Source: a virus
Lineage: Duplodnaviria; Caudoviricetes
Length of the DNA: 64,000 nucleotides
Reading direction: 5' to 3' (one strand)
IMG/VR virus record: IMGVR_UViG_3300035696_000029
Span: 19,819 to 83,818 of that record
Shown: positions 20,217-58,878 of the stretch, in pieces
Position numbering within the stretch: position 1 is the stretch's first letter
Layout of the letters: each line of letters opens with the position of its first letter
The notes under the pieces: model-generated
Told to the model about the DNA's origin: nothing
Database searches by the model: none
Seen by the model: only the letters and a program-made list of their open reading frames with translations
Position numbers and translations under genes: made by a program

Positions 20217-22070
20217 TTAAGTACTGTACATCTTGTAAGCTGGCCAAGTTTCGAAACGAGTCAAAAAACTGTTGTCAGCGTTTCGATCTGCCATTGCCCA
20301 AGTAAATTGAGCCGAACTCTTATAAGGATCTAAAGCAGGGAATGCTTCTTTGGCAGCTGCAAAATTAGGGAATGATTGAACTCCCCAACCATCCGGGGTT
20401 ATTTGACCATTTTTTACACCTACAACTTGAACAGGATAATCAGGTGAAAATCCTACCCATGCTGCTGTTTTACTAGAAGAACCAAATCGCGGATCTCGCT
20501 TTTTAGGAATATAATCTGAACCTGGTATCGAGCGAGGCACCCAATCTGTAACTGGACGACCCTTAGCTTCATCCCATTTTAAACCGTATTGAGCTAAAAT
20601 TTGTTTAGATTCTTCTACACTGGGACCGCCCATCACACCCAGCATAGGTGCGGGCATCTTTAGATTTTGTATCGCAATCTTTAATTGAGCATACTCAGGA
20701 GTGCCCTTTTCTGGCATTGGCTTTGTAATCTTAGTTGAAGGTGTCCGTCCATGACGACGATCGTATTCTTCTTTACCTTGTTGAACAGCGTTCTGCATTT
20801 CTGGATCAACAGGAGGAGTCAAAGCAGCTTTACTTGTTCGTTTTCCTACAGCATGACTAGCTTTGGTTTGCTGCATCATACGGAAAACAGGTGAGTCTTT
20901 GGGTTCGTTTTCAAAATAAGTCTCCCAATCGCGACGTTTGTTGGGATCGTTCTCGTAGTTACTTTCCCACAATTTGTAGAATTCATCTTCAAATGGAGCA
21001 AATTGCTCTTGAATAGCGTCATAAGCTTGATTGTAAGCTTCTTCACTCATGTTGCCCCAATTTCCAGAACGCTGATCTTGAATATCGCTAACATCGACCC
21101 GAGCAGCTTGTGAGAAGATCTTAGCAATATCTTCTCGGCCCTTATCCTTGAAGAATTTTGCTGTACGATGAATCATGCTAGGCACATTATATTCTTCGCG
21201 GTTACGACCCGAATAATTATCCCACAATTGCATAAAACCACCGTTCAGAACTTGAGCAACAACGATTTCCGCATCTTCTTGATAAGGATGAACTGCTGCT
21301 GCTTTTAGACTTGCTTTCTTAGGAAGAGGATTTTTCTCAGATGCACGTACTTCTTGTACAAGTTCACTGCAATTTATACGGAGGCCACTCTTTACCAATT
21401 CACCAATGATTTGAGGATAGTTTACCGTAACAACATGACCCTTTGATAATCCAATAGGTTCTGCTGATGGACGACCGCCATGAGTTCCCATAGGCTCAAT
21501 AGGAAAAGGAACAGGCATACCTTCTTGATAAACAAAGACTAAAGTCCACTCGCGACCAAACATGTTACCATATTGTTTTACGCAAGAATCAGGCAGTTGT
21601 TCTCCACCTGTCCAATTGGCATATTCTTGCTCAGCTTGTTCTAAGTATTGTGATCCTTTGTATTTAAGGACTAGTCTGTAACCTTGACCTTGTAAAGCGG
21701 AAGCAAATTGTGCCATATCTCCGCTTATTTCAGGAACAACAACAGATTTGGTACTCTTGAGTTTATCTCTAGAAATACTGAACGCTGCGTCAGGATCGCC
21801 AAGAGGACAAACTCTCCAAAGATTTCCTGTGCTTTCCAAAACTTCTACTGGTTCGCCTTTCCACATGTAAGTCTCGGGAGCTACACCTGGTGCAGCAGCG
21901 CCATCGGCGGTTTGTAAGAAAGCAGCAAAACGAGAAGGGAGACCAGTACGATCAAATGCTTTTCCTAATTCTAGGCTAGCTTGATCGCCAGCATTCTTTT
22001 GCACGCTTTCAATAGCATCACTGAAATCATCTGCTGTAATATGAAAATCTTCAAGTCGATTCTGGCTCAC
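20217..22070 (-). CDS. Modular putative head-internal protein with KxA-delimited segments (617 aa)
   Basis: KNA, KKAS, RTA, KAS and KTAA motifs separate distinct segments; co-transcribed with the 2249-aa gene. Confidence 0.6.
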   Translation of the reverse strand: MSQNRLEDFHITADDFSDAIESVQKNAGDQASLELGKAFDRTGLPSRFAAFLQTADGAAAPGVAPETYMWKGEPVEVLESTGNLWRVCPLGDPDAAFSISRDKLKSTKSVVVPEISGDMAQFASALQGQGYRLVLKYKGSQYLEQAEQEYANWTGGEQLPDSCVKQYGNMFGREWTLVFVYQEGMPVPFPIEPMGTHGGRPSAEPIGLSKGHVVTVNYPQIIGELVKSGLRINCSELVQEVRASEKNPLPKKASLKAAAVHPYQEDAEIVVAQVLNGGFMQLWDNYSGRNREEYNVPSMIHRTAKFFKDKGREDIAKIFSQAARVDVSDIQDQRSGNWGNMSEEAYNQAYDAIQEQFAPFEDEFYKLWESNYENDPNKRRDWETYFENEPKDSPVFRMMQQTKASHAVGKRTSKAALTPPVDPEMQNAVQQGKEEYDRRHGRTPSTKITKPMPEKGTPEYAQLKIAIQNLKMPAPMLGVMGGPSVEESKQILAQYGLKWDEAKGRPVTDWVPRSIPGSDYIPKKRDPRFGSSSKTAAWVGFSPDYPVQVVGVKNGQITPDGWGVQSFPNFAAAKEAFPALDPYKSSAQFTWAMADRNADNSFLTRFETWPAYKMYST

Positions 22071-22072
22071 TG

Positions 22073-25000
22073 TTATGCTCCTTGAGCTTCACGAGTTCCT
22101 ACAACGAACTTATACTTCATCACCATAGTGTCCGTATCGATGCTCTCAGCACGGACAAAAACTTCGTACACGAAGCCACCATCTTGTTCTTTATTCCAAA
22201 CAGCCGATTGTGCCCAAGCATCATTAATGGCATTCTGGATTTCTCCATCGTTCAATTTGTCTAACAAATACTTTACACGAGAAGCCGGATCAACAACCGT
22301 GGCATCTACAGGCATAAATCCTGGCTGTGCCTTTTCTACTTGAGCCAGTTGAACTTCACCCATACCGGGAACCTTATCCATCAATGGGCGAGAAGTAACC
22401 TTGAATGCTGAGACTAGAGCGGCTGCAATTTCACCGCAGACTTTCTTTAAGAATTTGGAGAATTGCTTAGGTTCGTCTGATGCTGCTACTTTCTTACTTA
22501 CAATAGCTAGAGCCGAACCATCTGGACCCGGAGTATACTGCTGATGAAATTCATCCGTAAACATCATACCACGGATGTCGTTTTCTTTACGAAGCGGAGC
22601 ACCCTCTAACACTTCGGGCTTACCATCACGACCTATGCCCGCACCAGCTGCAGGAGAAGTACTCACATAACTAAGTTTGGTGGTATCAAGAGATTCATCG
22701 GCTGCCTCGGCGATGTCGCTATCGTAACCCTGAGAAATGTCGATATCCTCAATCATAGGACTGTTGGTGTCGTTTGGATAGTCTACGAGTTCATGCTGAA
22801 GTTCAGGATAGAATTCGCGCAGAGCTTGTCCTGGGAAGAAGAAATTGAATCCTGCTTTCTTTTCAGCTGGGACTTTGTAGTATCCTTTTCCGTTGCACTT
22901 TACACAGTTAGGATTATCTTTTCCATTGCAGTAGGAACACTTTTCCCAAGTTTGACCTTTTTCGTCTTTCCACTGATTGCTTGATTTCTTTTCTTTCTTG
23001 AAAAATGGTTCCATATTACGTTCCTTCCGATCCTTTGCAGTTTTAGCTTCTTTCTTTGCAAATTCAACATCGGCTACTGCTTGAGCATCACTCGTGGTCA
23101 TGCCCTCGGCTTCAAGTTCGCGCACACGCTTGGCATAACCCGGTGGATCGTTTGGAGCATCTTGCTTCTTATCCCAACATTCTTGACAATATCCAAAATA
23201 AGGAACAGGTCTTTCTCTCCTGCATTCCTTACAGTTTCCTATTGTTGTTTGATGCTCGTAACCGTCAGCTTCTTTTTCTTGAATTGCACTAATCATCGGC
23301 GTATGTCCATCTATGTCCGTTCCACCATCAGCTCCAGTAGAACCATCATTTGTAATTGGTATCTTTGATGCTGAAGCAATATTGATAATCACCTGAGTTC
23401 CGGCATTACCTTCAGCTTTCGGGACAGTCACTTCTTCCACTTTACCTACACCAGGAACATGAACATCCGTTTCTACTCCATGATCTTTAGCCGCATTTTG
23501 AACTTGCTCTAATTCGTTTTCCTTTTCACCAATGCTCTTGCCAACTTCCATCTCCTGTTGAGTCTCAAGAGCCTCGCGCATAGCATTTACATTTCCGCTT
23601 TCGGGTGATTCAAGATTGCCCGGCAGAACTAAAGTTCCTGTTGCTGTCTTTTTAGGAATTGTTCCCAACGTGGAACAAGTAGTACACTGTTTCTCATTAC
23701 CACGAATTGCATGCTTAGTTTCACGACGACACTTTGAACAATATGAAGTCTGGAAACCGGAATTCTCATGCTCCTCAGCTGTCTTAGGATGAGTAGAAGC
23801 CCGAGGACATCCGCCATCCTTTGTCAACTCACACTTGCACACAGGGCAGTTGCCACTATCTTTTGCAGTCTTCTTGGAACCCTTCCGTTCGTACCATTCT
23901 GGATTTGTACTCATTAACTTTAGATATTCTACCGCACACTTTCGGCAAGCTGCTCTTAATTGAGCTTTACCGGATTCGGATTCTATATCAATTGGAACTC
24001 GAAGATCCCAAGCGACCGTTCTACCACACAGGGCAGGTGTATCGGCTCCGCCGCCTAACATAACTCCTTTCGGTCCCTTTTCACGAATATGCCAAGGAGA
24101 AGCACCACCAGCTGTTACCGTTTCACAATAGAAGAATTTCGCATTTGCTAATTTATCTTCTGGTAGTTCGGGAGACTTCTTGTTCCAAAAGGCTGCTGTC
24201 TTTGTTGATCCCGAATGAGCATGCATGTCTTGCAAATGTTTCTTAGCTTTATCCTCTGTTGTATGAGAAGAAAGAATCTTACCCGTTTCATGGGAATAGA
24301 CACACCATTCCGCCAGATTACCATCGGAGTTCCGATGTCCAGGACAATGCTTAACGTAAGCAACTTTTTGCATAGAACCAAATTTATCCACTAAACCCAC
24401 ATTTCCGCAATTATTGCACTTTGCTGCTCTTCCACCTTTAGAATTTATCCAAACAGTATTTCTACTCCCACAAACAGGACAATTTCCAGGTCCCCCTCCC
24501 TTCTTATCGCCAGCAACTTTTTCGTCTTCTAATTGTAATTCTTTCACGCATCCATCGCAAAGAGACGTTATCCGCTCAACAGGTACTTTTAATTTATGGC
24601 AACGAGTGCAGCCCTTTAAAAGTGCCGTTTTAATGGATGCTGTTTGTTTAGATTGAGGAACATGCTCAATTTTAAGATTAGAAGAGCTAACTGCTCCGCA
24701 ATTTAAACACTTAACTCCTTCTGGACATGTAGTAAGATCTTGGGCATTACACTCCCGTGCCACTTTTCCTATCTTTTTAGATTCATGACCTGTTCCATCA
24801 CAAGCACGGCAAACTCTACCATTTTGCATTCCTGAACCACCGCAAGCTTCGCAAACTACCCATGCTTTCTTTTCTATTTCAGAACTTGATTTCTCTTGCA
24901 ATTCTTTTTCTTTCAGCCAACCAGGAATGTTCGGCTCGCCTTTCCCAACTTCAGCGGGTTTCTTATAAGGCCGCAATTTATCCATGTATTTCTCAACCAA

Positions 25001-28000
25001 AGCATTTACCGCTCCTGCTGGCTTCTGGATGTTAGCGTAGTCTTTTTGAAACTGCTCGGCATCTGGACCACGTAGGACGTATTCACGTCCGTTCATAATG
25101 ACGAGCATGTGGAAACCCTCTCCATCTTCTCCTTCCTCAACGGTAATTGAGGCATTCTTGATGTAAGAAGCTACTTTTTCACGAGCAGACGATTCTTTGC
25201 GATGATAATGACCACACTTCGGGCAACGTTCTCCGCCAACTCCTTTGTTGCAACCGCATTGGTAACAATCAGCGGTCTTTACTGTTGCCTCTTCTTTCTT
25301 ATCGTCTTCAATTTTCTGCCAGCACTGATGGCAGAGTCCCTCATCATCTAAGCTACGATCCTTACCGCACTCTTTGCACTTTCCCATCTTGCGGGCAGTC
25401 TTTGAAGAAGCATTTTTAGCTAGATCTTCAAAACCAGACATATTAACAAAAGCTTTTTCTGTGAGATAACCATTTTGATCTAAATAATTTTTCTTCTGAA
25501 GTTCATTCAATACGAGAGGATCGGCATTTCCGCCTTCCATTGAATAATCAAAATTACGCCAATCTGTAATTCCATAATCATCAAGATTTATAGCTATATC
25601 GCCAATAAATTGCAATAAATCAGCAGCTTTTGCTGAAAGATCCAGTGCGGATGCAGTCTTAGATTCTTCCTTCTTTCCTTCTCGTTCTTTCTTTTGTTTT
25701 TCCCATTCCTCTTCATTAAAACCTTCTGGTGATCCTCGAGGAGAGCAGAATTTGCATTCACAACCATCTCTGTGGCCGCCAGCAGCTTTAGACTTTTCTT
25801 TTTTGCCTTTTGGGCATGACTTGTTGGCACCCTGAACAGACCATTTTTCTCCACAGTACTCACACTTGCCATCAACAAAAGAGTGAGGAGTAAACTTAGC
25901 AGCGGTCTTAGGTTCTTCCGATTCAGATTTTGATTCTTCAGATTTTGATTCTTCAACTTTCGATTCTTCAGGCTTCGGTTCTTGGGATTCCTGTTGCTTT
26001 GATTCCTGTTGCTTTGGTTCCTCATGCTTGGTAGCCGAATTCTCAAGAGCAGCGGGAACAGCCTGAGCCTGACTATCACTTATGGATCTTTCCTTCTCAG
26101 GAGTATCCGATTTCGCTGATTCAGGCAAAGCGCCAATCCCACCTCCTGGCTTAGGTTGTTTGTTGTTCTCATCATTAGGCACCTCAACCAGAGGTGCTTG
26201 ACCCATGTCCTGTAAGACTTCATTCAAGATGTCATCATTGCTAGGAACATCGTCAGCAAACTTACGACGATCCCCATACTTCTTCTGTAACATTGCTTCA
26301 TGCTTGGCTCGTTTATCCTGACTATGCTGCGAAGCAGCCACAAAACGCTCAATAGTCTCACCTTTCCAAGCAGATGAAGCTTGAATTTGGTACTCTGCAT
26401 TGTCATCAACATCGGCAGTAACTTCTTTGTTGATGATGTCGTTCAGAAGACCTATAGAATCGACATACTGAACAGTTGATTCAGCCATGTTGCGTGGATC
26501 GATAAAACCGTCTTCAATTAGACCAGCAGCATCTTCATCCCAAACATCAAGGACTTCTTTATCACAACATTCGTCCATCAAACGTATATTGAAACGGTCC
26601 CGCTCTTCCCACGTGGTCAAATGAAATTGATGACCTTTGTAGTCGTAGAATTCATTACGATCTTTGGCTTGCTTTATCAAACTGCCCTTGACACTTCTGT
26701 AACCACCGTTGATTACATTTTCTATAGCACGCAAGTCACGCATGAGATCTTGCTTACCATAAGGAGCCGCTTGAAGCTTTTGAACAATTGTAGCACGATC
26801 ATCGCCTGTTGCTTGTTCCAACTTTTGAATTTCTGCTTCTTGCCAACTGGTAAATTGATTTTCTATGGCTTTAAAAGTTGCACCAGGTTTTTCCAGTAGA
26901 CCATCGGTTAAATACTCGGCAGCAGAACTCAAAGTTTGGGATGGAGTTAATTCAGGATATGCTTTACTGAGTTTACCTGTAACAAGCATACGATCCCCAA
27001 CATATTCTACTAGACGGCGGAAACCGTAGCTGCGACGTGGATAGATATTTGTTAAACCCGGTTCTCCTACAATTACATCGGCACCGCAAACTTCCTGCCA
27101 ATGATCTCGTGGACCGCTATTTTCCCACATACCGTCAGAAATCTGACCCTCTAGTTCACAAGTCCACAGCCAAACTTGAGTCTTATTGGCAAAACGGATC
27201 TGCCCATCAGAAACACCAGCAGTCTTAACAGAAATGTCCGACAGATTACTGCTCTCGTGTATGCCGTAACCACCCGGAGCTTTAGGATCAAAGAAAGACT
27301 TTCTTGGACTATCTTTGGTTGCGGTCATTTGATACTCAATGGCTTGTTTCATGCCTTCAACACTATTGAAGCCACTAGGATAAGTATCCTGGATCCAACC
27401 ATAATCAACAGGGTTGCCACCACGTTGTTTAATAGCATCCACCATTGCTGGATTATTTTTGAAGAATTTTGGTCCAGTTGTGTGCCAATGGCAAACTCGC
27501 CCACCCTGAAGATGTCCTTCTATTTGCACATCAATACGACGATCTCCTCCAACTTCTTTTTCATAAGTAAAGGGAGCACTGCGGCTCGTGCGCTTAAAAC
27601 CCAAGGCACGAAGCTCTCTAAAATAATCTGAATCAGCAGTCTTAACAGCAGCACGCTTTGGAGTTCCGTCGGAATTCAATTCAATACCGATTGGTTCTTG
27701 TTCGCTTTCATGAGCTTTGGCTGCTTCTTCATTGAATTTGACTTCACTAACTTCTTTATTCTTCTTAGCATCGGCAGCTTCGGTACCTGGTCCAACGTTG
27801 GTTGTTCCTGCGGGTACACCATGTGGTGCTTCGCAAGCTTCTTTAGAAGATTTCTTTGTCTTTTGGCATTCAGCACAAAGTTTTTCTTTTGTTATTTGAT
27901 GGCATTCATTAGATCCACGATGAGCGGGGCAAGCATGATCAGAGCATTCACAAAAATGATCTTTTTTAGCAGCTAAACGAGGAACTTTCTGACTGCCTTC

Positions 28001-28822: not shown

Positions 28823-28834
28823 GAGATTCCTCTC

Positions 28835-29341
28835 TTATTTAATCCTAATATCGATCTTCTCCGATTCACGTCGGATACTCGGTTCAGCCATCGCCATTGC
28901 ATCGGCAAATTGCAACATGATATTCTTGACCATGGTTCCGTCTAATTCTGCTTCTTCCAGTGTCTTCTTAAACAAGTTGCAAATTTCCGTCAATACAAAC
29001 TTGAAACGCGGTCCATCAAAATTGAGCGCATCTTTCTTGCTCAAGATGTCCGTATCGTTACACTGCTTAGCAAGTGCCGTAAGAACTTTAACTTGCGTCT
29101 CCCAGGCTTTTTGCTTCCAAGCATCACCCGGATCCTTACCCTGTCGCACTGCATCTTTAGCAATCTTCCCTAACTCGATTGTAATCAGACGACTCACTTC
29201 TACAATCGGAGTGTTGGGATCCTCTAACTTCTTAAGGATCTCATCAAACTTGTCGATATTTCCCGTCTCAGCAGGTTTTGGCTGCGCTACACCTTCTAAG
29301 ACTTGAAAATCTACCGTCTCAGTTCGATTTATCGAATCCAT
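28835..29341 (-). CDS. Hypothetical helical protein (terminase small subunit possible but unsupported)
   Basis: 168 aa, amphipathic helices, in the structural operon. Confidence 0.5.
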   Translation of the reverse strand: MDSINRTETVDFQVLEGVAQPKPAETGNIDKFDEILKKLEDPNTPIVEVSRLITIELGKIAKDAVRQGKDPGDAWKQKAWETQVKVLTALAKQCNDTDILSKKDALNFDGPRFKFVLTEICNLFKKTLEEAELDGTMVKNIMLQFADAMAMAEPSIRRESEKIDIRIK

Positions 29342-30834: not shown

Positions 30835-30845
30835 AATTAGTATCC

Positions 30846-31475: not shown

Positions 31476-31476
31476 C

Positions 31477-31525: not shown

Positions 31526-31530
31526 AACAT

Positions 31531-32340: not shown

Positions 32341-32398
32341 TTGCGTATTCACAGAAAAACACAAACTTCGGAAGTTATTTTAGAGGAGCTATAAACAT

Positions 32399-44454: not shown

Positions 44455-45414
44455 TTACAGTTCACCAACGTTGCTGGTCGAGTTGTAGCGACCGTTAACA
44501 GTGAGACGCTGTACACCGCTTGGGTTGAAGACCAAGAAGCCAAGGTTCTCAAAAATCGAGAAACCAATCTGGCGTAGGTCAGGACGATCGGCGGACATAA
44601 CCGTGAGAGGAATACGCTCAGGGATAACACCAAGGAACTCAGCATCAGCCAGAATGTAGATAGAGCCGTAGCCCACACGACGAGACTGGAGAAGCGTTGC
44701 GCCCCAGAGGTAGCCCATAACGCCCGTCTTCAACAGCTTGCGCTGTGTTTCACGGTCGATATTCTGTTGCGTCCACTTCAACAAGTCGGTATAATCACGA
44801 GGATTGAAGAAGATGAAGTTCACAGAGATATCATGGCGTTGGACCTGACCGAAACCATCGGCCATGGAGTTGATGTCCACGGGTGCGTTGATTGCGATAT
44901 CAGGGTTGTAAATTGGATCAAAGGTGCTCTTACCAACAGCGGTTGTTGCGATGTTATCGAACAACGTGAAGATATAAGCGTCTTCCTGTGCACCAACTTC
45001 GGCTTTCGCCAAGTTGAGTGAACGGGCAACCAAATCAAATCTACGTTCTTTGATTTGGGTGATCGGAATCATTGGATTGGACGCGATTTCAAAGGTTGGC
45101 ACGGTGACGCGCTTTGGCTTTGTCACACGGACCACATCGCCACCTTCTTCACCAATGACAAAGGCTTCTACGAAGCTTCCACCAGGGGTTGTGCCCACGG
45201 TTTCGGCTTGGGTATCAAATTCCTTATCATAGATGGGCAATGCGCCATCCGGAAGCGTTTCTACCATCAATGCCTTGCGAGCGATTGACATGTAGTCACG
45301 GCGACGACGGAGGGATGGACCCAACGAGGCCGCTAACTTTTGACGACCACCTGCAGTCTTGAGTAATTGACCGAGCATAGCCGTCTGTTGCTGAGTACGA
45401 GATAGATTAGGCAT
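44455..45414 (-). CDS. Major capsid protein (HK97-like fold)
   Basis: 319 aa; RRRRDYMSIARKALMVETLPDGALPIYDK, VTVPTFEIASNPMIPITQIKERRFDLVAR, GVMGYLWGATL; canonical position after protease, scaffold and decoration genes, followed by a terminator. Confidence 0.85.
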   Translation of the reverse strand: MPNLSRTQQQTAMLGQLLKTAGGRQKLAASLGPSLRRRRDYMSIARKALMVETLPDGALPIYDKEFDTQAETVGTTPGGSFVEAFVIGEEGGDVVRVTKPKRVTVPTFEIASNPMIPITQIKERRFDLVARSLNLAKAEVGAQEDAYIFTLFDNIATTAVGKSTFDPIYNPDIAINAPVDINSMADGFGQVQRHDISVNFIFFNPRDYTDLLKWTQQNIDRETQRKLLKTGVMGYLWGATLLQSRRVGYGSIYILADAEFLGVIPERIPLTVMSADRPDLRQIGFSIFENLGFLVFNPSGVQRLTVNGRYNSTSNVGEL

Positions 45415-45439
45415 ATATTCTCCTTAATGTCCTTTTCTC

Positions 45440-48405: not shown

Positions 48406-48407
48406 TT

Positions 48408-49538: not shown

Positions 49539-49554
49539 TCAAACCCCTCACTAT

Positions 49555-49591
49555 AAAACACAAAAGGCTGGAAATTTGCTTTCCAGCCTTT
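49555..49591 (-). terminator. Rho-independent terminator after the scaffold gene
   Basis: 12-bp stem AAAGGCTGGAAA / TTTCCAGCCTTT (49563-49591) with a T-rich tail on the minus strand. Confidence 0.75.
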
Positions 49592-49655
49592 GTACGCCCG
49601 TATGCCTGGGTCCAGGACTCGATCTAGGTTTATCTAGACGGAACAACTTCTACGT

Positions 49656-51701
49656 TTACTCGTCTCCAATGAATGAACCCATCAATGCTTCGCCAACATT
49701 GATGTCGGTAGCAGTCTTGGGAGCAGCAGCCTTGATTGGTCCAGTGTAAGCAGCCTTCTTGGCTTCTGGAGCCTTCTCAAGAACGTTGGTCTCATCTTGC
49801 TTGGTACGAACGGCACCCTGCTCTTCAACTTTCAAACTCTCAAGAGCTTCGGCCCAGATATCGCTTTCGTGATCGGAAGCAGCATCGCGGTCGTCACCCT
49901 TAGCTGTATCAGATTCGAAATGCTTTGCGGTTTCACTGGTAAAGGAAGGTAGAACATCTATGCCAGCAACATCTCCGGCTTCCTTTGAACCAAGTAGAAC
50001 TGCGATTGGATCGGCATCAGAACCTTCCAATGAGAACATGTCAACAATTGAAGCGGTTTGAGGTTCCAATGTTGCTTCCAAATCTTGAGAAGCTGAAGGA
50101 CCAAAGAATGAATCCATTCCATCGGCTGCCTCAACACCTTCTCCTTCATTAGCAAGAGCAGATTGTTTCTCTTCCATGTCATCCTGGTTGAAGATGTTCT
50201 CAATATTGAGTTCTTCTTCACCACCAGCGGGAGCACCTTCCGGTCCACCTGCAGGTAGCTCTGCCATTTCGGAAATTCCTTCCTCAGCAGCAGTTTCTTC
50301 GCCTTCGATATCGGCCAAAAGACCCTTGATGGCTTCCTCAGCCTGATCGATCTTTTCGGTCATATCCATTTTCTTTTCTTCTGTCAAAACAGTGGCACTT
50401 TCTGCCGCTGCGCCAGGTTCTCCTAATTCAGGAGCAGGTGCTTCACCTTCCGGTCCTGCGGGTGGCATAGGTTCTACGCCTTCTGGTCCTGCGGCTGGAG
50501 GTGCGGCTTCTTCTGCTGGGGGAGCGGGAGGTTCATCGGCTTTCTTTGAGGTAGCTGCTTTTGGTTGGCACTCAGGGCATCCCTTGCAACCATCATGTCC
50601 TGCTTGCTTTGCAGCTTTAAGAGTCTTGTCGGATTCTTCGGACTTGTTAACGGTACTTGCAGGACGTTCGCCAGCCTTGCCAGCATCAGTCTCTGCGGGT
50701 TCCGTATGCTTTCCACCACCGCAACCGCGACCGTCATTATAGGTCTCAGTCTGTGGACCAGCATCCTTGCGATCATCAGCGACTTTAACATCGCCCTTGA
50801 CTTCGGACTTAACAGCGTTGTGCTCCTTGGTCAATACGGATGGATCTTCTAGAAGGTCATTGAGTTCGACCTTGTGAACTTCCTTGAAAGATTCGGCAAG
50901 TTTGGTATTATAGGCATTCACTGCTGTCTGCCGTAGAGCCGCCGTCAAAACTTTCGTGGAATTCAAAAGCAAATTAGCTGCGAAATGCTTCTGAATTGCT
51001 GGCGGAGCATCGGGTAGCATTGTCTTAGCAATAGTCCAAGCCGAGGCCACGCGGGTCTGGGCATCTTTGGTAATATCGCGCTTGGTTTTTGCTGCTGCCA
51101 ATTCCGTCTTAAGTGCGGGTTTGGTTGCTGTCTGAGTCATGGTGCCATCCTTCGTCAAGGTAGAAGGGGAAGTTTTGCCCTTCTTTACTTGTACTTCGTA
51201 GTTGTTTTCTTTCTTTGTTGAAGATGATTTGCTTGCTACAGGTGCCGGAAGCGGCTCTTCTACAGGTGCTGCGGGTTCTTCTACTGGTACTTCGGGACTT
51301 ACTGGAGCGGCTGCAGTGGGTGGAGCAGGTGCTCCGGGAGCTACTGGAGGAACAGCAGCGGGTGGTGCGGCTAGAGGATCTTGCATTGGTAATGCTGCTC
51401 CCGTTGCCCCATCTGCTATTTCAGCGATGTTGAGATCAAGATCTTTTAGAAGTGATTTCACTTCCTCAGACCAATCGCCATTCTTTAGTTGATCCCATGC
51501 ACTAATAAGTTCAATCCGCTCGCGCATCTTGCGAATGTTAGTTTCTAACTCTTCTCGCTTTTGCGCAAGCATATCAAAATCGTTAGTCATTTCTTCTGGG
51601 GGAAGAACAGCGTCCATCTCAAGAAGTTGATTATCCATTCCATCTAAATCAGCTTCTTTTTGTGCTAATGCCGCCAGCACTGCTTTGTAAACTTTAGACA
51701 T
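49656..51701 (-). CDS. Probable capsid scaffolding (prohead core) protein
   Basis: Between the protease and capsid genes; acidic, Pro/Ala-rich, N-terminal coiled coil; several KxA motifs. The likely start is the ATG at 51701 (MSKVYK); the track starts at 51728. Confidence 0.65.
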   Translation of the reverse strand: MSKVYKAVLAALAQKEADLDGMDNQLLEMDAVLPPEEMTNDFDMLAQKREELETNIRKMRERIELISAWDQLKNGDWSEEVKSLLKDLDLNIAEIADGATGAALPMQDPLAAPPAAVPPVAPGAPAPPTAAAPVSPEVPVEEPAAPVEEPLPAPVASKSSSTKKENNYEVQVKKGKTSPSTLTKDGTMTQTATKPALKTELAAAKTKRDITKDAQTRVASAWTIAKTMLPDAPPAIQKHFAANLLLNSTKVLTAALRQTAVNAYNTKLAESFKEVHKVELNDLLEDPSVLTKEHNAVKSEVKGDVKVADDRKDAGPQTETYNDGRGCGGGKHTEPAETDAGKAGERPASTVNKSEESDKTLKAAKQAGHDGCKGCPECQPKAATSKKADEPPAPPAEEAAPPAAGPEGVEPMPPAGPEGEAPAPELGEPGAAAESATVLTEEKKMDMTEKIDQAEEAIKGLLADIEGEETAAEEGISEMAELPAGGPEGAPAGGEEELNIENIFNQDDMEEKQSALANEGEGVEAADGMDSFFGPSASQDLEATLEPQTASIVDMFSLEGSDADPIAVLLGSKEAGDVAGIDVLPSFTSETAKHFESDTAKGDDRDAASDHESDIWAEALESLKVEEQGAVRTKQDETNVLEKAPEAKKAAYTGPIKAAAPKTATDINVGEALMGSFIGDE

Positions 51702-52596
51702 TATGTAGTCTCCGTCGCAGATCCGCATTCAAAACAGCTGTATCTGTATCCAATTCAAGGTCTTGATAGTCAATATGTTGCGAAGCCGTCTTGGCGAATG
51801 CTAACTCATTGGCAGCTTTTGTAAATCTTGTCTTAGGTCCAACCCATTCTTCGGCCACTACACTACGCTTGGCCGCGCCGGGGAAGGCTGGCGTGGCTAC
51901 CCAACTGGCTTCAACAAACTTTACACCACCGTTGGGCATTGATTTGTGACCACAAAGTTCTGCTATACGACGAGGAACGCCATCTTCATCAGCCAAGAAC
52001 ATACCTTTTTGAAAAGCGAGATGGTTGCAGTAAGTATTGGCGTCTATTACACGTGTGCCACAATACGAACAAATGACTAGATCCGTTACACAACCCATGC
52101 TGAGGTAGCGAACCTTTTCGTTACGAATATCTGTGACTAATTGCGTGTGAGAGAGATCGGTTGCTACTAGAATATCACAAAAATAAACCCAACAGGCAGG
52201 TGGTGCTATGTTTATCTTGCGCAATTGAGCGTCTAGAATATGCCCCTTAGCATGAGCAGAATTCTGGTAGTGTTCAACGAAGTTAAACGCACCAACAAAG
52301 GATTTGTGAGATAGCTTTAGAACTTCATTTGTCCAGGCGTCATCATTATTGTTGACTAAGTGAGAGCATTCCGGCTTGATCAAATAATCATAAGGATCTT
52401 CTTCAACCATAACGGACGACATGATGGTACAGTGGGAGAGAAGATATTTACTGGATTCAGCTGCAATCTTTTTTGTGGAAGCAGTTTTCTGCCCAAACGT
52501 ATTGCGACCATAAATGCTAGCCCAATCCTGTAGAGACAGAATAGGATCTTCTATTCTAGCATTTGCGTATTTCTTGAATGTGCCCTTTATTTCCAT
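51694..52596 (-). CDS. Prohead maturation serine protease (HK97-type) with a zinc-ribbon insert
   Basis: NFVEH (His), YLSMG (Ser) and EASWVATPAFPGA motifs; CSYC...CNH insert. The likely start is the ATG at 52596 (MEIKG). Confidence 0.85.
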   Translation of the reverse strand: MEIKGTFKKYANARIEDPILSLQDWASIYGRNTFGQKTASTKKIAAESSKYLLSHCTIMSSVMVEEDPYDYLIKPECSHLVNNNDDAWTNEVLKLSHKSFVGAFNFVEHYQNSAHAKGHILDAQLRKINIAPPACWVYFCDILVATDLSHTQLVTDIRNEKVRYLSMGCVTDLVICSYCGTRVIDANTYCNHLAFQKGMFLADEDGVPRRIAELCGHKSMPNGGVKFVEASWVATPAFPGAAKRSVVAEEWVGPKTRFTKAANELAFAKTASQHIDYQDLELDTDTAVLNADLRRRLHNV

Positions 52597-52616
52597 GGTC
52601 TCTATTAAATAGTCTC

Positions 52617-55600
52617 TTAGGCTGTAAAAAATGTTCCACACTTCACGCATTCGACCAAATCAGGAGCCGAAGCTGTCTTAGTTTCTCCGTCAGTTACACG
52701 TAAAGTACTGGAAGATTTACAGTTAGGACAATTTGGTGCCGTACTTAACTCTTCTGTCTCTTCACTGCGAGTATTCCAATATTCGTTAGCGTATTGAGTA
52801 CCGACTTCTTGCCATAACTGCTGCATAGTCCAGCCGTTATCTAAAGCTTCCTGTAGCATAAATTTATCTGTTAGGAATGCTGTATAGGCTTTATCTTCTT
52901 TTTCTTGAATTTCTTCAACTTGTGAATCTTGATCATTATCTGCTGCTGCAATATTAAATCCTTCTCGTTTTTGTAGATCCAATACAATAGCCGGAACATT
53001 TTGATGACCTAAAGCATGCCACGCGGCCAATCTATTTTGACCATCCTCTAAATGATAACTTTTCCAATCCTTAGTCGTTACAACTATTAGAGGAAATCTT
53101 TGACCTTTTTCCATCTTTTGTTTATAAGTCCGAGCAAGATCAGCTTGCATTAGATCTTGATAATCTTTAGCAGATAGATCAATTTTACTTAAAGGAATTA
53201 AAGATATGCGAGCACTGCCTTCGTCAATGTATTGCTTGTAGCTTTTGGGATTAATCTTCCACAAATAGTATTCTTTCGGCGCTCCAATTTTAACACCTTC
53301 TAAAGGTTCCTTGCCGATGATATCTTTGATTTCTTTCTTTACGTCCTCGTCCAAATGACCACGCATGTCGTCTCGTTGCGGAAGCAAAGTAGGAGTATCC
53401 TTCTGCTCTACGGCTCCCAGCTTGATCGGCTCATCTTTAACCAAAGCTTTTGATAAATCAGTTGTGAGAGGTGTGACGGCAAGAACCTGTTCAGAAGGAA
53501 CTCGACCAAAATGTTTCATCCATGGTCCTTCGCTTGATGCTTGTCCCATAGGATCGTTTTCGTCAACTTCCCACTTCTCATTACCCGTATCAAGAGTAAC
53601 GATGGAAATCTTTCCGGTACCTATACCCTGATTGAAACTCCAATCCATTTTTGCTCCCCAACGAACGGCATCCTTGGGTGAAACGAAAGCAAAAATTTCT
53701 CCCTGCCCGTAACGATCTCCACCTTCTCCCTGTATCCAATTGGAAGGCTGCAGAGGCAATAATCCTTTTTTCTTAATCTGTGGAACCTTTGAGGTGTGAG
53801 TAACATGATAAAGTTTTCCTGCAGCAGTTTTCTCAAAAGAATTTACTGAAGAAATTTTCTTCAAGTAATCCTTCAATGGATACAAAGTATCGTTGCCCCA
53901 TTGATTAGTTTCCGAATTAGCATGTCTCCACTCAGGCTTATTTGTATCGTTGTAAGACAGAACTATTTCATCGTTTCCTCTTACAAATTTGTGCTCTTCT
54001 CCAAATTGGATATTGGTGGATTTGTAACTAAATCCATTTTTTACTAGTAATTTGGCAAGAGGATGAGATAGAGCTGATTTCTCCAGAGCAGCCGTTCCTG
54101 AATCAGCTTGTTTGAGATTTTCTCCATAATCAGGACGACGACGAAGCGGTTCACTCTCTTTAAAGATTTTGTTTTCAGGATTCAAATCGAGATTAGCTCG
54201 CTTGCTATAACGACTTTCTATCTTTTGGGCACCTTTTTTATCAATGTCCACTGTTACACTATAGAGACCCCACCCTGCGCCATACACATAAACAACAGGA
54301 TGATTGCCATCCCAAATAGAACTGGATGTGATTACTTGTTTAGAAACTGGATCAAATTGATACATAGTCCAATCGGTCACACTGCCGAATTGCTGATACC
54401 AATCCGAAGTTTCAAAAGCTCCGGCTAAATCTTCGCCAACATCCTCCATATTTTGTTTTACGACACTAGACAACTTCAGATTCACAAATCCTTGTTCTGT
54501 TTCTGCTACAGGATCCCAGATTAGACCGCTGTCAGGAACAACGGGTATAGTCAGTTGCGTAAGATCTACTCCTAAACGTGCGGCTTCTGACTGCCAAGGA
54601 GCAAAAATGTCTTTATTTGGTTTAGTCTTAAGATTAAAGTGTGAAGGAGCACTGAATCGCTTTCCTTTTTTGTTAACTCCAAATTTTTGAAGGCCAGCAA
54701 TAAATGCTGCTCGCTCTAATTGCAGTTTAGAAAGACCAGCAGTTTTTTCTTTTTCTTCTCCCTCTTGTTCTGCGCAACAAGCTGTAGGCACAATATGCAT
54801 TCCCCAGAATGAACACCAAGATTCGCGACCTTGTGAATCAGGCTGTTTAGCTTTGCTACCATATTCGCAACGGTGACAACCAAAACCACCTTGATTGGTT
54901 TCCGCGTATTTTGCTTCTTCCTTAGTGAATTTCTTCTTCATCGGAGGCTTATTCTCAGGCTCTCCAAGATGGAACAAACGGCAACTGCCTTTCTCAAAAC
55001 TGATTGGTCCTTCTACACGCATACATTCGTCTGTACCCATGCGCATATCGCACGAGCCACAAAGATAATTGCCCAAGGAATCATAAGCTATGCCATCTTC
55101 GGCATATTGCGCCCATTCGCCAGCTTCATTACGCACATGATCTTCGGCTTCTTCATCATATTTGCCGGGATCAGGAACATTGCCGTGTTCTTCATGTGCT
55201 TTCTTTGCTTTGCGATATGCAGCACGAGCTATAATGCCTTGAGGTTCTCCCGACAATCTTGTAGTAATGGGAACTTCTGCGGAAGCAAATTGGGGTTGTA
55301 ATAGTTCTTTTTCTCGATAATCCAACGTCTTCATTACCATTCGTGCACGCATGCCGTATTTTCCAGCATCGGATCTATCTGTAGGTTCGTACACACCATC
55401 TATAAGCCATCCGCCATCTTCAACTTGATTAGGAGGAATTCCTATGCGATTGATAAAATTTACATGGGTATCATGCTGCCAATTAGGATCGGCAAATATC
55501 TGACCATCACTGGTACGAACGGCAGCATACTGTCCTTCATCTGGATGGAATGTAGAACGAGGAATCTCACCACCAAGATTAGGAAAACGCTGCAAAACAG

Positions 55601-56501
55601 CTATTGGAAAAGCAGAAGAAGACTTTTGTAAAGCAAGGGGTTTCATAGGGAAGAAACCATCACACCAATCCATTATCTTAGTGCCACCTACATGACCAAT
55701 TTCTTCGTATTCTTCTAACAATTCCTTTACCATCTCATCTTGAACTTCTAAGAGATAATCATAGACGTCGTCAGCATACTTGAAATTTTGTAGGAGAAAG
55801 GCTTTTCCACCAGCAGCAGAGATGAGTTCATTAAGTTTAATTTCAGTGTAATATTTCTTAGGTTTGCTGCGTTTGAAAATCTTACCTTCTGGATTTAATT
55901 CAGGATCTACAGGATCTGTTTTTTGAGTGGGTAATGGAGCTTCAGCTTCTTTATCAGGTTTTTCAGAACTCTCTTTCACTTCTGTAGCACCTTTGCAACC
56001 GCATTCCTTTTCATACGGACAGCCGAAATCAGGTGGATGTGTATGGATTTCGAAAGGATGACCACAAGTGCACATTGATGCAGTCTTTTTGGCGTATTGA
56101 TTCCTGGCCCAATTTATAATTTCTGTGGGATTTACTGGAATCGCATTTGGAAAGTTAGCTCGTACTTTTACGAGATATTTTTCTTGAATGTCACTTAACA
56201 GAGCAACAACTTCTTCGGGAGTTTTGCACTGATTCTTGATACGAAGAGGACCGCCAGCAGCTTGTACTAAATCCCAGAGCTTGACTTTTGCAGCCGTAGG
56301 AGTAGAGCCGTGTTTCTCATTCTCAGGCTCAGTACCTTTGTAAACAAAAGGATCGTTATAGTCAGGATCAGCATGCCAATCGCCTGTTTCTGTAGCACGA
56401 GCAGGATCGGCATACATTTCAAGTAGCGCATCCAAGGCGACTTTTCTTTGCAGGAGTGGATTGAGGCTCTTCATGCGCAACCTTTGAGTTGGCCAAGGCA
56501 A
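52617..56501 (-). CDS. Polyvalent protein or polyprotein (1294 aa): zinc ribbons, two HiPIP-like Cys modules, ART-like domain, ParB-like domain
   Basis: KTA/KVA/KRA-delimited modules; LYHVTH...IKKKGLLP (ART-like); PLIVV...LEDGQNRLAAWHALGHQNVPAIV (ParB/Srx-like). May start at the ATG at 56474. Confidence 0.75.
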   Translation of the reverse strand: MPWPTQRLRMKSLNPLLQRKVALDALLEMYADPARATETGDWHADPDYNDPFVYKGTEPENEKHGSTPTAAKVKLWDLVQAAGGPLRIKNQCKTPEEVVALLSDIQEKYLVKVRANFPNAIPVNPTEIINWARNQYAKKTASMCTCGHPFEIHTHPPDFGCPYEKECGCKGATEVKESSEKPDKEAEAPLPTQKTDPVDPELNPEGKIFKRSKPKKYYTEIKLNELISAAGGKAFLLQNFKYADDVYDYLLEVQDEMVKELLEEYEEIGHVGGTKIMDWCDGFFPMKPLALQKSSSAFPIAVLQRFPNLGGEIPRSTFHPDEGQYAAVRTSDGQIFADPNWQHDTHVNFINRIGIPPNQVEDGGWLIDGVYEPTDRSDAGKYGMRARMVMKTLDYREKELLQPQFASAEVPITTRLSGEPQGIIARAAYRKAKKAHEEHGNVPDPGKYDEEAEDHVRNEAGEWAQYAEDGIAYDSLGNYLCGSCDMRMGTDECMRVEGPISFEKGSCRLFHLGEPENKPPMKKKFTKEEAKYAETNQGGFGCHRCEYGSKAKQPDSQGRESWCSFWGMHIVPTACCAEQEGEEKEKTAGLSKLQLERAAFIAGLQKFGVNKKGKRFSAPSHFNLKTKPNKDIFAPWQSEAARLGVDLTQLTIPVVPDSGLIWDPVAETEQGFVNLKLSSVVKQNMEDVGEDLAGAFETSDWYQQFGSVTDWTMYQFDPVSKQVITSSSIWDGNHPVVYVYGAGWGLYSVTVDIDKKGAQKIESRYSKRANLDLNPENKIFKESEPLRRRPDYGENLKQADSGTAALEKSALSHPLAKLLVKNGFSYKSTNIQFGEEHKFVRGNDEIVLSYNDTNKPEWRHANSETNQWGNDTLYPLKDYLKKISSVNSFEKTAAGKLYHVTHTSKVPQIKKKGLLPLQPSNWIQGEGGDRYGQGEIFAFVSPKDAVRWGAKMDWSFNQGIGTGKISIVTLDTGNEKWEVDENDPMGQASSEGPWMKHFGRVPSEQVLAVTPLTTDLSKALVKDEPIKLGAVEQKDTPTLLPQRDDMRGHLDEDVKKEIKDIIGKEPLEGVKIGAPKEYYLWKINPKSYKQYIDEGSARISLIPLSKIDLSAKDYQDLMQADLARTYKQKMEKGQRFPLIVVTTKDWKSYHLEDGQNRLAAWHALGHQNVPAIVLDLQKREGFNIAAADNDQDSQVEEIQEKEDKAYTAFLTDKFMLQEALDNGWTMQQLWQEVGTQYANEYWNTRSEETEELSTAPNCPNCKSSSTLRVTDGETKTASAPDLVECVKCGTFFTA

Positions 56502-56526
56502 CTAAACTCTAGTTGTCCTGCCTAAA

Positions 56527-57192: not shown

Positions 57193-57264
57193 GATCTGTT
57201 CTCCCTTACGGTCTTGCTATTAAGAGTAAAAATAATGTTGTTATCGTTTTTAATTAGCGATCTT

Positions 57265-58878
57265 TTATGCTGCTGCAGCTGTACGAAGTCCCAATAATGA
57301 GGACTTTTTAGCCTTTTCTTTCACCTTAGCAGCTTCTTCCTCGGCAGCCTCTTGCATCTCTTGCTTGTTAAGAACCTTCACAGCATCATCACAGAGAGAA
57401 TAGGCTTTGTAGATCGTTTCCACAAATTCTCGCACTCCACGAGTGTTATTAACTTGACAAAGAGGCTTGGCATCAAGATAGAGAGCCTTCAACTTTTCAC
57501 CAAGGGACTCGGCATCCTTTACGGCTGAAGCGAGTTTCATCATATCGGTAACAGCAGGACGCTCCAATTTTGCAGGTGCTTCGTCTTTCATACCACGAGC
57601 TTGAGCAACTTCCGGTGTACGACCGCCATCTTCAACAATGTCACCCAATTTACCATCATTGGTCCACTTAGTTGAGCCAGCACCGAATTTCTTCATGACA
57701 TACTGAGCACCAAAGACACGAAGAATTCGTGATCCCTTATGTGGCGTGTAGCCCTTGTTCTTCATAGACCACGCCAATGCCCAAGGATTGTCAATGCCCG
57801 GTTCATCCTTCATTTCTTTAACAGTGCCTTCCCATCCTGGAGGAGCAACAGCGGTCTTAGATTCTTCAGCAGTCTTACTATCCTGCGCCTTCTCACCACT
57901 GGAACCTTCCATCACATTTGGAGTTGGGGCAACTGGAACATCGTCATGACGTTTGCCTTCTTCAGCAGCTAGCTTTGGAGGTTCGGCACCTTGTGCCTGA
58001 GGAATATCTTTTTGGAAAGCAGCAGCGGGAGCACCTTGCTCGCCAGCTTCTTTACTGTCCTTCTCTTCCTTCTTCTTAAAAGGAGGAGCCTGTTTACCAC
58101 CAAAAGGTTCTTTCTTAGCAGCAGTTACAGGAGCAGCGGGAGCCGTGGCTGCGCCTTCCTCGGGTTTGGCTGGAGCTACGGGACGATTCTTCAAGATATT
58201 TGTCATCTCGATCAAAGCATCTTGCATGCCTTTGTTCTGGGCAAAACCTTCTTGCTTAGGTAGATCCTCAACTATCTTGAGAATCATTTCAGTAGGAACA
58301 AAATCTAACGGAGATCCTGTCTTTGCAGTTGCACCAGGAGCCATTGGTGTGGCAGCGGGAGCCGGAGCAGCAGCAGGTTCAGCTTCTTTCTTTTTCTTTG
58401 CAGCATAACGAGGAACTTCAACTTGCTCGGGAGCTTTAGGTTGACCGTTAGAATCTCGATCCGTCACCCAAGCATCTGCTCCGCCGCCAGCACCACTTTC
58501 TTTTTCAGCGGCCTGTTCGGGAAGAGCACTAGCGCCGGGAGCACCTTCAATACGCTCAGGACGTGTTCCTGCTCGTACTTGAGAGATAAATTCTACATCA
58601 GTTTTGACTTCCTGTGCAAATTCTGGCATCTTAGTGTCGTCTAAATAGTCTTCTATGCTGCTTGTTCCATCAGCAGCCATTTCAGCTGGAGTCAAATTCA
58701 AGACACCTTGTAGGCGAGCAACAGCTTCTTCAAGTTGGTCTAGTTTTGGATCATGAGGATTTTGATTGAGTAATTTCTCGGCCAAAATTTCGCCTTCACT
58801 AATGGCCTTCTTAAGAGTCTCAACAGAAACCAATACTGTTGCTTTTCTCATGTGACGGTTTAGCATCTGTGACTTCAT
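57265..58878 (-). CDS. Acidic Pro/Ala-rich modular protein with KxA motifs
   Basis: 537 aa; KAT, KEA, two KTA, KLA, terminal RTAAA; contains PPGWEGTVKEMK..NPWALAWSMKNKG and WVTDRDSNGQPKAP segments. Confidence 0.65.
   Translation of the reverse strand: MKSQMLNRHMRKATVLVSVETLKKAISEGEILAEKLLNQNPHDPKLDQLEEAVARLQGVLNLTPAEMAADGTSSIEDYLDDTKMPEFAQEVKTDVEFISQVRAGTRPERIEGAPGASALPEQAAEKESGAGGGADAWVTDRDSNGQPKAPEQVEVPRYAAKKKKEAEPAAAPAPAATPMAPGATAKTGSPLDFVPTEMILKIVEDLPKQEGFAQNKGMQDALIEMTNILKNRPVAPAKPEEGAATAPAAPVTAAKKEPFGGKQAPPFKKKEEKDSKEAGEQGAPAAAFQKDIPQAQGAEPPKLAAEEGKRHDDVPVAPTPNVMEGSSGEKAQDSKTAEESKTAVAPPGWEGTVKEMKDEPGIDNPWALAWSMKNKGYTPHKGSRILRVFGAQYVMKKFGAGSTKWTNDGKLGDIVEDGGRTPEVAQARGMKDEAPAKLERPAVTDMMKLASAVKDAESLGEKLKALYLDAKPLCQVNNTRGVREFVETIYKAYSLCDDAVKVLNKQEMQEAAEEEAAKVKEKAKKSSLLGLRTAAAA

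Follow-up and report, generated by a model that had tools for sequence, protein, structure and literature searches.

In bacteriophage T4, the prohead protease gp21 cuts at the motif L/I-x-E, and the internal proteins IPI-III and Alt carry a capsid-targeting sequence; cargo of this kind is brought into the head by a segment that is afterwards removed, and it leaves the particle together with the DNA. The herpesvirus protease assemblin has maturational and release sites of the form (V/L/I)-x-A↓S, where the arrow marks the cut, and the N terminus of the capsid protein, the flanks of the protease and the tail of the scaffold are known cut places of the prohead proteases of T4, phiKZ/SPN3US and the herpesviruses. 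The enzymes of the jumbo phages phiKZ (gp175) and SPN3US (gp245) cleave at S/A/G-x-E (PMC10052503, PMC7411985). Polyvalent proteins carry recognisable enzymatic effector domains, and their processing is predicted to occur mainly by zincin-like peptidases in cis (Iyer, Burroughs, Anand, de Souza, Aravind 2017; PMC5512222). Here we analyse 64 kb (the window) of an 83.8-kb contig from a peat metagenome (IMG/VR record IMGVR_UViG_3300035696_000029), in which almost all genes lie on the minus strand. The tripeptide K-T-A is strongly over-represented in nine head proteins of this window, among them five large proteins of up to 2249 amino acids (aa), and it is probably part of a site code, written K-x-A↓S/A/D/G, that is read by the head maturation protease. 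No published description of a K-x-A code was found in the literature searched.

The nine head proteins that contain the motif are listed below; profile searches placed the portal at 1278-3761, the head maturation protease at 51694-52650 and the major capsid protein at 44455-45414.

22073..28822, minus strand: candidate cargo polyprotein of 2249 aa, with a conserved N-terminal unit, a conserved C-terminal unit and a variable middle array; 13 K-T-A, at aa 231, 394, 533, 972, 1055, 1141, 1182, 1398, 1541, 1651, 1680, 1725 and 1927
52617..56501, minus strand: candidate polyprotein of 1294 aa, directly upstream of the protease gene; four K-T-A, at aa 139, 586, 891 and 1275
37233..40643, minus strand: candidate polyprotein of 1136 aa; three K-T-A, at aa 432, 625 and 675
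20217..22070, minus strand: 617-aa protein with a DMP19-like domain at aa 270-368 (20967-21263); one K-T-A, at aa 534
57265..58878, minus strand: 537-aa protein; two K-T-A six residues apart, at aa 335 and 341
1278..3761, minus strand: portal protein of 827 aa, with a portal profile match at aa 465-707; two K-T-A, at aa 88 and 277
51694..52596, minus strand: head maturation protease, in a reading frame open to 52650 with the probable start Met19 at 52596; two K-T-A
49656..51728, minus strand: putative scaffold of 690 aa, 15.5% Ala, without a family match, between the protease and capsid genes; one K-T-A, at aa 671
44455..45414, minus strand: major capsid protein, related to phage G gp27 (PDB 6WKK); one K-T-A, at residues 19-21 (LLKTA-GG)

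These numbers agree exactly with those of the original prediction, which had been made from the letters of the window and had assigned the system to positions 20217-58878, a range that leaves out the portal gene. In an unbiased scan of all tripeptides, K-T-A came first by many orders of magnitude, with 29 occurrences in the nine head proteins against 3.6 expected (p 3.5e-17) and a p of 3e-11 in the 2249-aa protein alone. A rough estimate of about one chance occurrence in 2249 aa had been offered earlier and was accurate (0.95 expected from composition), and none of 2000 shuffles of this protein reached 13. The other 38 proteins of the window hold two K-T-A against 2.9 expected, with no enrichment, and the remaining 19.8 kb of the contig hold one in ∼5400 aa. 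The sheath, the tube, the LamG protein, the glycosyltransferases and the radical-SAM genes have none, as had been claimed, and the polymerase and TerL one each. Since the sheath, tube and LamG proteins contain only 0.9-2.1% Lys, their zeros are uninformative, and the useful controls are the Lys-rich non-head proteins. The single K-T-A of TerL is at residue 10 (SRKTAGS; residues 8-13, 19600-19629, minus strand; expected count 0.13) and may be a chance occurrence or the product of a mis-called start, since a terminase is not expected to come into contact with the prohead protease.

Signals of this kind can arise from composition, internal repeats, a signal at the DNA level or chance, and the giants are indeed rich in Lys and Ala with some low-complexity linkers. 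Shuffling within windows of 9, 15 or 30 aa gave means of only 1.0-1.4 K-T-A and a maximum of seven against the 13 observed, so local composition does not explain the count, which the global shuffles likewise never approached. The five other orders of the same three residues occur 2-8 times each against 29 for K-T-A, and on the evidence weighed here are 5-10 times rarer. The residues on either side vary from site to site, and the sites are thus not copies of one repeat, while the 31 K-T-A sites are encoded by 14 different 9-mers in line with general codon usage, which places the signal in the protein and not in the DNA. It also recurs in non-homologous parts of 100 other proteins, and we regard an artefact as having next to no probability.

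Those proteins are homologues of the 2249-aa protein. Fifteen of them, from other metagenomes, share only 11-18% of the query, yet K-T-A is the top tripeptide in most, and together with the 2249-aa protein they contain 97 K-T-A against 10.4 expected. Within these 16 giants only Lys is enriched before T-A and only Ala after K-T, with Ser or Ala preferred two residues before the Lys and Asp, Ala or Ser after the Ala. A query with aa 1-396 of the 2249-aa protein returned 97 further giants of 711-1971 aa, and in 100 homologous giants (133,590 residues) K-T-A occurs 402 times against 60.7 expected, followed by KQA (242 versus 43), KKA (290 versus 93), KEA (264 versus 110) and KVA (161 versus 65). 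R-x-A is flat, with no variant raised. The earlier suggestion that (K/R)-x-A variants belong to the code therefore holds for its Lys half, the K-Q/K/E/V-A forms being enriched 2.4-5.6-fold, and fails for Arg. Usage differs only mildly across the giants (KTA-rich versus KQA-rich), and the second position (P2) is also permissive at the protease and scaffold sites described below.

The enrichment extends to named relatives. The capsid protein of the window is 70% identical to that of Tunturiibacter phage Tunturi_5, a cultivated jumbo myophage, 49% to that of the 485-kb uncultured phage LR745208 and 35% to gp27 of Bacillus phage G, and unbiased scans of gapped dipeptides across the head regions ranked K.A first in Tunturi_5 (126 versus 76.9 expected), phage G (70 versus 40.6) and LR745208 (105 versus 68.2). 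The Tunturi_5 excess is located in gp328, gp332, gp348 and gp350, and its sheath and fibre proteins have none. A 49-kb replication/early region, analysed as a control in Tunturi_5 only, gave 67 K.A against 72.4 expected. Tunturi_5 gp348 (L001 43927-45519), which has four K-T-A and 18 K.A against 7.3 expected, is the orthologue of a 497-aa protein encoded just upstream of the 2249-aa gene (29341-30834, minus strand). The latter has no K-T-A and 15 [K/R]-x-A against 8.7 expected, and probably belongs to the same processed set.

K-T-A stands, in addition, at four places in the assembly proteins themselves, which were examined in alignments of 31 protease orthologues (56-75% identical) and 37 putative-scaffold orthologues (37-58%), and with relatives of the capsid protein.

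52480..52488, minus strand: K-T-A on the N-terminal side of the protease core (aa 55-57), placed by the orthologue alignment
51784..51792, minus strand: K-T-A on the C-terminal side of the protease core (aa 287-289), placed by the orthologue alignment
49710..49718, minus strand: K-T-A of the putative scaffold, 17 residues before its C terminus, placed by the orthologue alignment
45352..45360, minus strand: K-T-A of the capsid protein, residues 19-21 (LLKTA-GG), placed by alignment with relatives

At the N-terminal site of the protease, K55 and A57 are present in 31 of 31 sequences, with Ser or Ala following in 30 of 30; the stretch is rich in indels, and a second K-x-A-A often follows. At the C-terminal site, A289 is found in 32 of 32, S290 in 31 of 32 and K287 in 25 of 32, with Met in the other seven. 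Both sites fall in disordered tails with many indels, outside the confident core of an AlphaFold2 (AF2) model, at predicted local distance difference test (pLDDT) values below 50. The scaffold site reads [V/I/T]-[V/T/I]-A-S in the orthologues (Ala in 34 of 38, Ser in 32 of 38) and is followed by a conserved tail, D-I-x-x-A-L-F-G. The capsid N terminus has LLKTA-GG in 76 loci, LLKSA-AG in Tunturi_5 and YIKTA-AG in LR745208. In phage G the protease gp19 contains KTAA (43), KVAS (248) and KIAS (274), and the portal gp14 KQAA (18) and KIAS (625), while gp7 has eight K-x-A-[SAGD] sites. K-T-A or K-x-A-S is hence common to the candidate cargo, the capsid protein, the scaffold and the protease.

Two claims of the original prediction are refined by these alignments. 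That the motif is shared with the portal, scaffold, capsid and protease is borne out at the protease, where K-x-A-S is kept, but the Lys of the scaffold site is mostly Val, Ile or Thr in the orthologues. That the protease cleaves at K-x-A is favoured by the motif flanking the protease core, preceding the scaffold tail and marking the capsid N terminus, but the R-x-A part finds no support and the Lys is not near-invariant. Judged by these alignments, the motif is better written K-x-A↓S/A/D/G, in which the near-invariant elements are the Ala and the next Ser and not the Lys. Since the Ala and the following Ser are almost fixed and the Lys can be replaced, the scissile bond is most likely Ala↓Ser.

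The same alignments bear on a different explanation, in which K-T-A is an uncleaved linker between modules or a docking or modification signal, read by a Lys-directed modifying enzyme, by Thr glycosylation or by binding to the capsid interior, and the giants stay intact, as does the virion RNA polymerase of phage N4. Cleavage at K-x-A is, after all, deduced from sequence, the strict preference for Lys over Arg at the first position would suit a Lys-specific modifying enzyme, a cassette of glycosyltransferase and methyltransferase genes lies between the scaffold and capsid genes, and the stretch around K-T-A 231 of the 2249-aa protein is conserved and in part helical. Against this, the Thr is freely replaced in relatives (Gln, Val, Lys, Glu, Ser, Ile or Ala) while Ala and Ser are near-invariant, which argues against Thr glycosylation; the Lys, though invariant at the N-terminal site of the protease, is often replaced at its C-terminal site and at the scaffold site, which argues against Lys as the key residue there; and a pure linker would not be expected at the capsid N terminus, on both flanks of the protease and before the C-terminal tail of the scaffold. 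We therefore consider an uncleaved signal quite unlikely, and return to the motif as a protease site.

The protease gene sits in the head module beside the scaffold and capsid genes, in the order 1294-aa gene, protease, putative scaffold, (glycosylation cassette), decoration-like gene and capsid gene, an order shared with Tunturi_5. Its start is most likely Met19, since this removes an overlap with the upstream gene and matches the N termini of the orthologues; it also gives the coordinates implied by the original prediction. The PHROG profile phrog_18299 'head maturation protease' matches aa 105-262 (E 1.8e-13), and the homologues phage G gp19 and Tunturi_5 gp331 are both annotated as head maturation proteases. 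The 1263-position profile phrog_2774 matches as well, which hints at fused forms elsewhere. His127 (NFVEH) and Ser184 (YLSMGC), in the numbering of the 318-aa frame, are invariant in 30 orthologues of 57-75% identity, with the His first, and by this conservation would form the catalytic pair. The AF2 model has a mean pLDDT of 65.6 and a confident core at residues 65-245. Compared by VIA-align with 48,161 chains, it ranked T4 gp21 first (5jbl_A, Z 6.2, root-mean-square deviation 3.5, 121 residues aligned) as the only match with Z of at least 5, in a range (Z below 8) that can reflect a common arrangement; assemblin of varicella-zoster virus (1vzv_A) ranked third, with Z 4.4. A profile of 30 proteases found no match among PDB sequences. 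The modelled fold, a modest though consistent match, suggests a T4 gp21/assemblin-like serine protease, and the label 'HK97-type' that had been applied to the enzyme is not demonstrated, the nearest solved fold being that of gp21 and assemblin and no Pfam peptidase family being matched.

A Cys-rich insert directly follows the putative catalytic Ser of the protease, with C187, C194, C197, C208 and H210 invariant (aa 187-210). Weak Pfam zinc-ribbon matches to it appear in 10 of 30 orthologues, and phage G gp19 shares the insert. To our knowledge, a zinc-ribbon-like insert of this kind has not been described for known prohead proteases.

The architecture of the giants provides the third line of evidence. 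In the 2249-aa protein, an N-terminal conserved unit occupies aa 1-396 (1 to ∼260 or ∼396 in homologues) and a C-terminal conserved unit about aa 1985-2249, starting EKKA-GFNFFFP; in every homologue this unit opens with E-K-[E/K]-A and then GFNFFFP. Homologous giants have these ends in common, plus scattered middle modules in differing order, as the expectation of conserved termini with variable intervening modules had it. Blocks of BLAST similarity in the 2249-aa protein end or start at K-T-A (1-396/397, 542-, 972-, -1543/1544, 1728/1729-), and in the 1294-aa protein blocks end at ∼583-614 and start at 883-893, where K-T-A occurs at 586 and 891. Across 16 proteins, 99 of 665 distinct internal block ends lie at most 8 aa from a K-T-A junction against 39.3±8.0 for random placement (maximum 73 in 2000 trials), a figure to be read as an indication and not as a probability since the ends of homology blocks are not independent. 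The placement of K-T-A at module junctions, proposed earlier from the single sequence, thus extends to its homologues, and the modules also stand alone elsewhere. The 537-aa protein gives a similar picture: its C-terminal part, from aa 337-346 on, is homologous to proteins of relatives, a portion of Tunturi_5 gp328 among them. The K-T-A at 88 of the portal precedes its first conserved block and that at 277 lies in an insertion relative to LR745208. The 617-aa protein has further K-x-A at aa 251 and 256.

K-T-A-delimited segments are 29-447 residues long; in several of them the Cys number exactly four and form CxxC pairs, and Lys+Arg make up 15-24%. Two module families of the middle array of the 2249-aa protein could be followed outside it.

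24188..24391, minus strand: module family 1 (aa ∼1478-1545, HCPGH...HLQDMHAHSGS), ending directly at K-T-A 1541-1543
23912..24163, minus strand: module family 2 (aa ∼1554-1637, FCET...SPWHIR...GGGxDTPALCG), between K-T-A 1541 and K-T-A 1651

With residues 960-1960 as the query, an exhaustive HMMER search returned 648 proteins at E≤0.001. Family 1 occurs elsewhere as stand-alone proteins of 64-160 aa and family 2 as stand-alone proteins of 80-125 aa, and both also occur within other giants; stand-alone phage proteins with either module span 64-170 aa overall. In the two stand-alone copies of module 1 that were examined, homology stops at HSGS and no K-T-A follows. Where the module is followed by more than 60 aa, a K-x-A lies within 14 aa in 15 of 23 cases (typically SGS-x-K-x-A-D/E/A; p 3e-9 against a background of 0.12), and where it lies near the C terminus, in 3 of 11. 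The stand-alone copies (loci L084-L087) come from phage-like contigs, where they either neighbour ankyrin-repeat and nucleotidyltransferase genes or form part of arrays of small open reading frames. MAFFT repeatedly merges the two families, which have a PW-x-I core in common, so they may be distant paralogues.

A further reading accepts processing but restricts it: only a few sites would be used, to remove propeptides at the ends, or another enzyme would cut, or cutting would occur only after ejection, and the capsid would then not hold dozens of free mini-proteins. Precedents exist, in that many motif-conforming sites of SPN3US have not been confirmed as cut and most of its head proteins are uncleaved (PMC10052503), and processing of polyvalent proteins has been suggested to follow injection or to depend on peptidase domains within them (PMC5512222). 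In the giants of this window, however, neither Pfam nor PHROG finds a peptidase family. Moreover, the internal sites do not differ from the terminal ones in their order-specific motif or in their flank preferences, and are kept across 100 homologues at ∼6.6 times expectation, which is hard to explain if they are unused. We judge restricted processing to be unlikely.

Recognisable domains are few in the giants. Among ten K-T-A-delimited segments searched against Pfam at E≤1, only a weak ParB_N match appeared. It lies in the 1294-aa protein at aa ∼1078-1200 (52902-53270), where ParB_N scores E 0.004, below the cut-off, and a ParB-like PHROG E 5e-4. An ART/Tpt1-like reading of aa ∼890-1011 of the same protein has no Pfam support. 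The DMP19-like domain of the 617-aa protein, of a DNA-mimic family, is above the Pfam cut-off (E 1.4e-6). BLAST at 1e-3 detects no similarity between the Cys modules and the stand-alone zinc-ribbon genes of phage G. No short N-terminal targeting peptide of ∼10 residues was found; the giants open with conserved domains of ∼140-400 aa, and the first K-T-A comes at aa 231 (2249-aa protein), 139 (1294-aa), 432 (1136-aa), 534 (617-aa) and 335 (537-aa). An AF2 model of the N-terminal 400 aa of the 2249-aa protein has a folded core at 16-170; fold searches with this unit gave nothing significant in BFVD and, as best PDB match, YkuJ (function unknown, Z 7.2), and the ESM Atlas gave no usable match for either conserved end of the protein.

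Orthologues of the giants in Tunturi_5 bear the automatic labels 'virion structural protein' and 'DNA ejection protein', the latter being the label of gp328. By position and by its end domains, the 2249-aa protein is orthologous to Tunturi_5 gp350, which bears the label 'DarB-like' from structure-based automatic annotation; the similarity is confined to aa 3-253 and 1985-2244. Similarly, the 1136-aa protein has only its N- and C-terminal parts in common with Tunturi_5 gp345. In several relatives these two parts are encoded by adjacent genes (L061/L063/L064, L072/L073, L033, L074, L081), ∼5-10 kb downstream of the capsid gene, and the point of fusion or fission corresponds to the K-T-A-bounded middle modules of the protein in the window.

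We consider it fairly probable that K-x-A↓S/A/D/G is a prohead-protease site code that serves self-trimming of the protease, release of the scaffold tail, N-terminal trimming of the capsid protein and dicing of the cargo polyproteins. The protease would recognise K-x-A, here mostly K-T-A, and its cut would fall behind the Ala, the next residue being Ser, Ala, Asp or Gly. In the procapsid the enzyme would lose both of its own terminal tails in this way; the scaffold would be shortened by its last ∼17 residues (presumably the capsid-binding tail) and the capsid protein by ∼21 residues, the portal would be trimmed, and the five large head-associated proteins (2249, 1294, 1136, 617 and 537 aa) would be diced at the K-T-A joints between modules. 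The conserved end domains presumably bring the giants into the procapsid, and between them would lie an array of freely shuffled small modules, often Cys4 zinc-ribbon-like and basic, which after release may bind or condense DNA or be delivered into the host. Cleavage, the position of the cut, packaging and the role of the released modules are all parts that we infer; the effector and injection part of the original prediction is plausible and barely tested.

The computation shows that the motif exists, that it is specific to head proteins, that it sits at module joints and that the protease, scaffold and capsid sites are conserved; several observations nevertheless weigh against the proposal. 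K-x-A is missing from some module boundaries, certain homologous giants contain a single K-T-A, and part of the KEA and KKA excess may reflect Lys/Glu/Ala-rich helices. The K-T-A at aa 231 of the 2249-aa protein falls where a predicted helix begins and where conservation is general, so it could be structural and not a cut site. The phage G capsid protein (L002 20001-20849) has ALETE-EG at the aligned place and no K-x-A, so that the site is not universal: either this protein is untrimmed there, or the aligned site is no cut site. As to the enzyme, the structural match to T4 gp21 is modest (Z 6.2), Foldseek finds nothing in the PDB at E≤0.001 for the model, and Pfam finds no peptidase family in the protease and 29 orthologues, only the weak zinc-ribbon matches. 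Finally, the recognisable effector domains in the giants are the DMP19-like and the weak ParB-like ones only, which leaves an effector role almost unsupported.

The T4 system offers a close parallel, with one prohead protease of what may be the same fold class and a three-residue motif in the protease, the scaffold, the capsid N terminus and the internal proteins, which is cut in T4 and predicted to be cut here. The two differ in the residue before the cut (P1), which is Glu in T4, whereas the present motif apparently has Ala there and Lys at P3. The cargo of T4 is single-domain, with a targeting peptide of ∼10 residues and one cut, whereas here up to 13 motif sites occur in one 2249-aa chain that has large conserved end domains and no short leader. 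The phiKZ/SPN3US phages are likewise jumbo myophages in which head-internal proteins, portal, capsid and protease share one short motif, with cutting shown there and predicted here, and in which one propeptide may contain several copies. Their motif ends in Glu, however, cleavage mostly removes N-terminal propeptides and does not separate strings of unrelated modules, and they belong to the Chimalliviridae and not to the phage G-type clade. Assemblin is closer in its bond, with Ala at P1 and Ser at P1', and the scaffold site of most relatives (V/I-V/T/I-A-S) fits the assemblin consensus; it also cuts itself and clips the C-terminal capsid-binding tail of the scaffold, the same sites as predicted here. 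The present system differs in the Lys at P3 of most sites, in a phage enzyme with a zinc-ribbon-like insert and in many more candidate substrates.

Polyvalent proteins resemble the giants as very large, rapidly shuffled multi-module phage proteins that are believed to accompany the DNA and to be split into separate domains. Each chain comprises many unrelated modules that are shuffled between relatives, and a ParB-like domain, as in P1 DdrB, is weakly detectable here. The modules of the giants are instead mostly tiny, orphan and Cys-rich, no in-cis peptidase was found by Pfam or PHROG, the protease is a separate gene, and a specific in-trans site code is shared with the capsid machinery. The Dar proteins of P1 (DarB, DdrB) are giant head-packaged proteins, as is predicted for the giants here; methyltransferase or helicase domains of the DarB type were found by neither Pfam nor PHROG in the 2249-aa protein. 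The system thus differs from those known in its motif (Ala at P1, Lys at P3), in the number of sites per chain and in having neither an in-cis peptidase, as far as these searches reach, nor a short targeting leader.

The window covers head and tail genes of a jumbo myophage of the phage G type, and the head/tail region of Tunturi_5 has a matching gene order. Profile searches further identified a family-A DNA polymerase, TerL, a tail sheath, a LamG-type protein, a glycosyltransferase and an FkbM-type methyltransferase. Two peat-metagenome DNA runs contain the stretch, both possible sources, and no RNA runs are listed. The cassette at 46172-49538 (minus strand), which has the putative scaffold gene on one side and the decoration-like and capsid genes on the other, comprises a glycosyltransferase family 2/galactosyltransferase protein, the FkbM-type methyltransferase and a 376-aa protein without a family match. 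IMG/VR contains at least 137 capsid relatives, of which 80 loci with 84-95% capsid identity were retrieved, and the cassette has any match in only two of the retrieved loci; it might glycosylate virion proteins. The sheath protein (59352-63146, minus strand) is very long at 1264 aa, with 13.4% Thr and 1.5% Lys, and both its sheath-family match and its conservation with Tunturi_5 gp326 are confined to the last ∼350 residues.

More tentatively, it is possible that phage G-type jumbo phages, from peat, tundra and other soils as well as the cultivated phage G and Tunturi_5, share the K-x-A↓S/A/D/G code as a general packaging device, in which in-frame insertion between head-targeted end domains would load any small accessory protein, even one from a family that elsewhere has its own small early-type gene, to be freed by the capsid protease. 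The virion would then come equipped with dozens of rapidly exchangeable mini-proteins, such as DNA-binding zinc ribbons, DNA mimics and ParB-like proteins, which would either work on the DNA in the capsid or pass into the host together with it. Since phage G and Tunturi_5, which have the same K.A enrichment, can be grown, the head content of such phages is directly testable. If real, the code would make it possible to predict which proteins lie inside the head, and where mature proteins begin and end, in a large clade of jumbo phages from soil and peat, most of them uncultivated; capsid relatives in IMG/VR number at least 137, and homologous giants about 100. The code would also widen the specificity of phage prohead proteases from the known Glu-ending motifs to an assemblin-like Ala-Ser bond, which bears on their shared ancestry, and would represent a polyprotein strategy in a tailed phage, by which one gene sends a dozen or more small proteins into the capsid.

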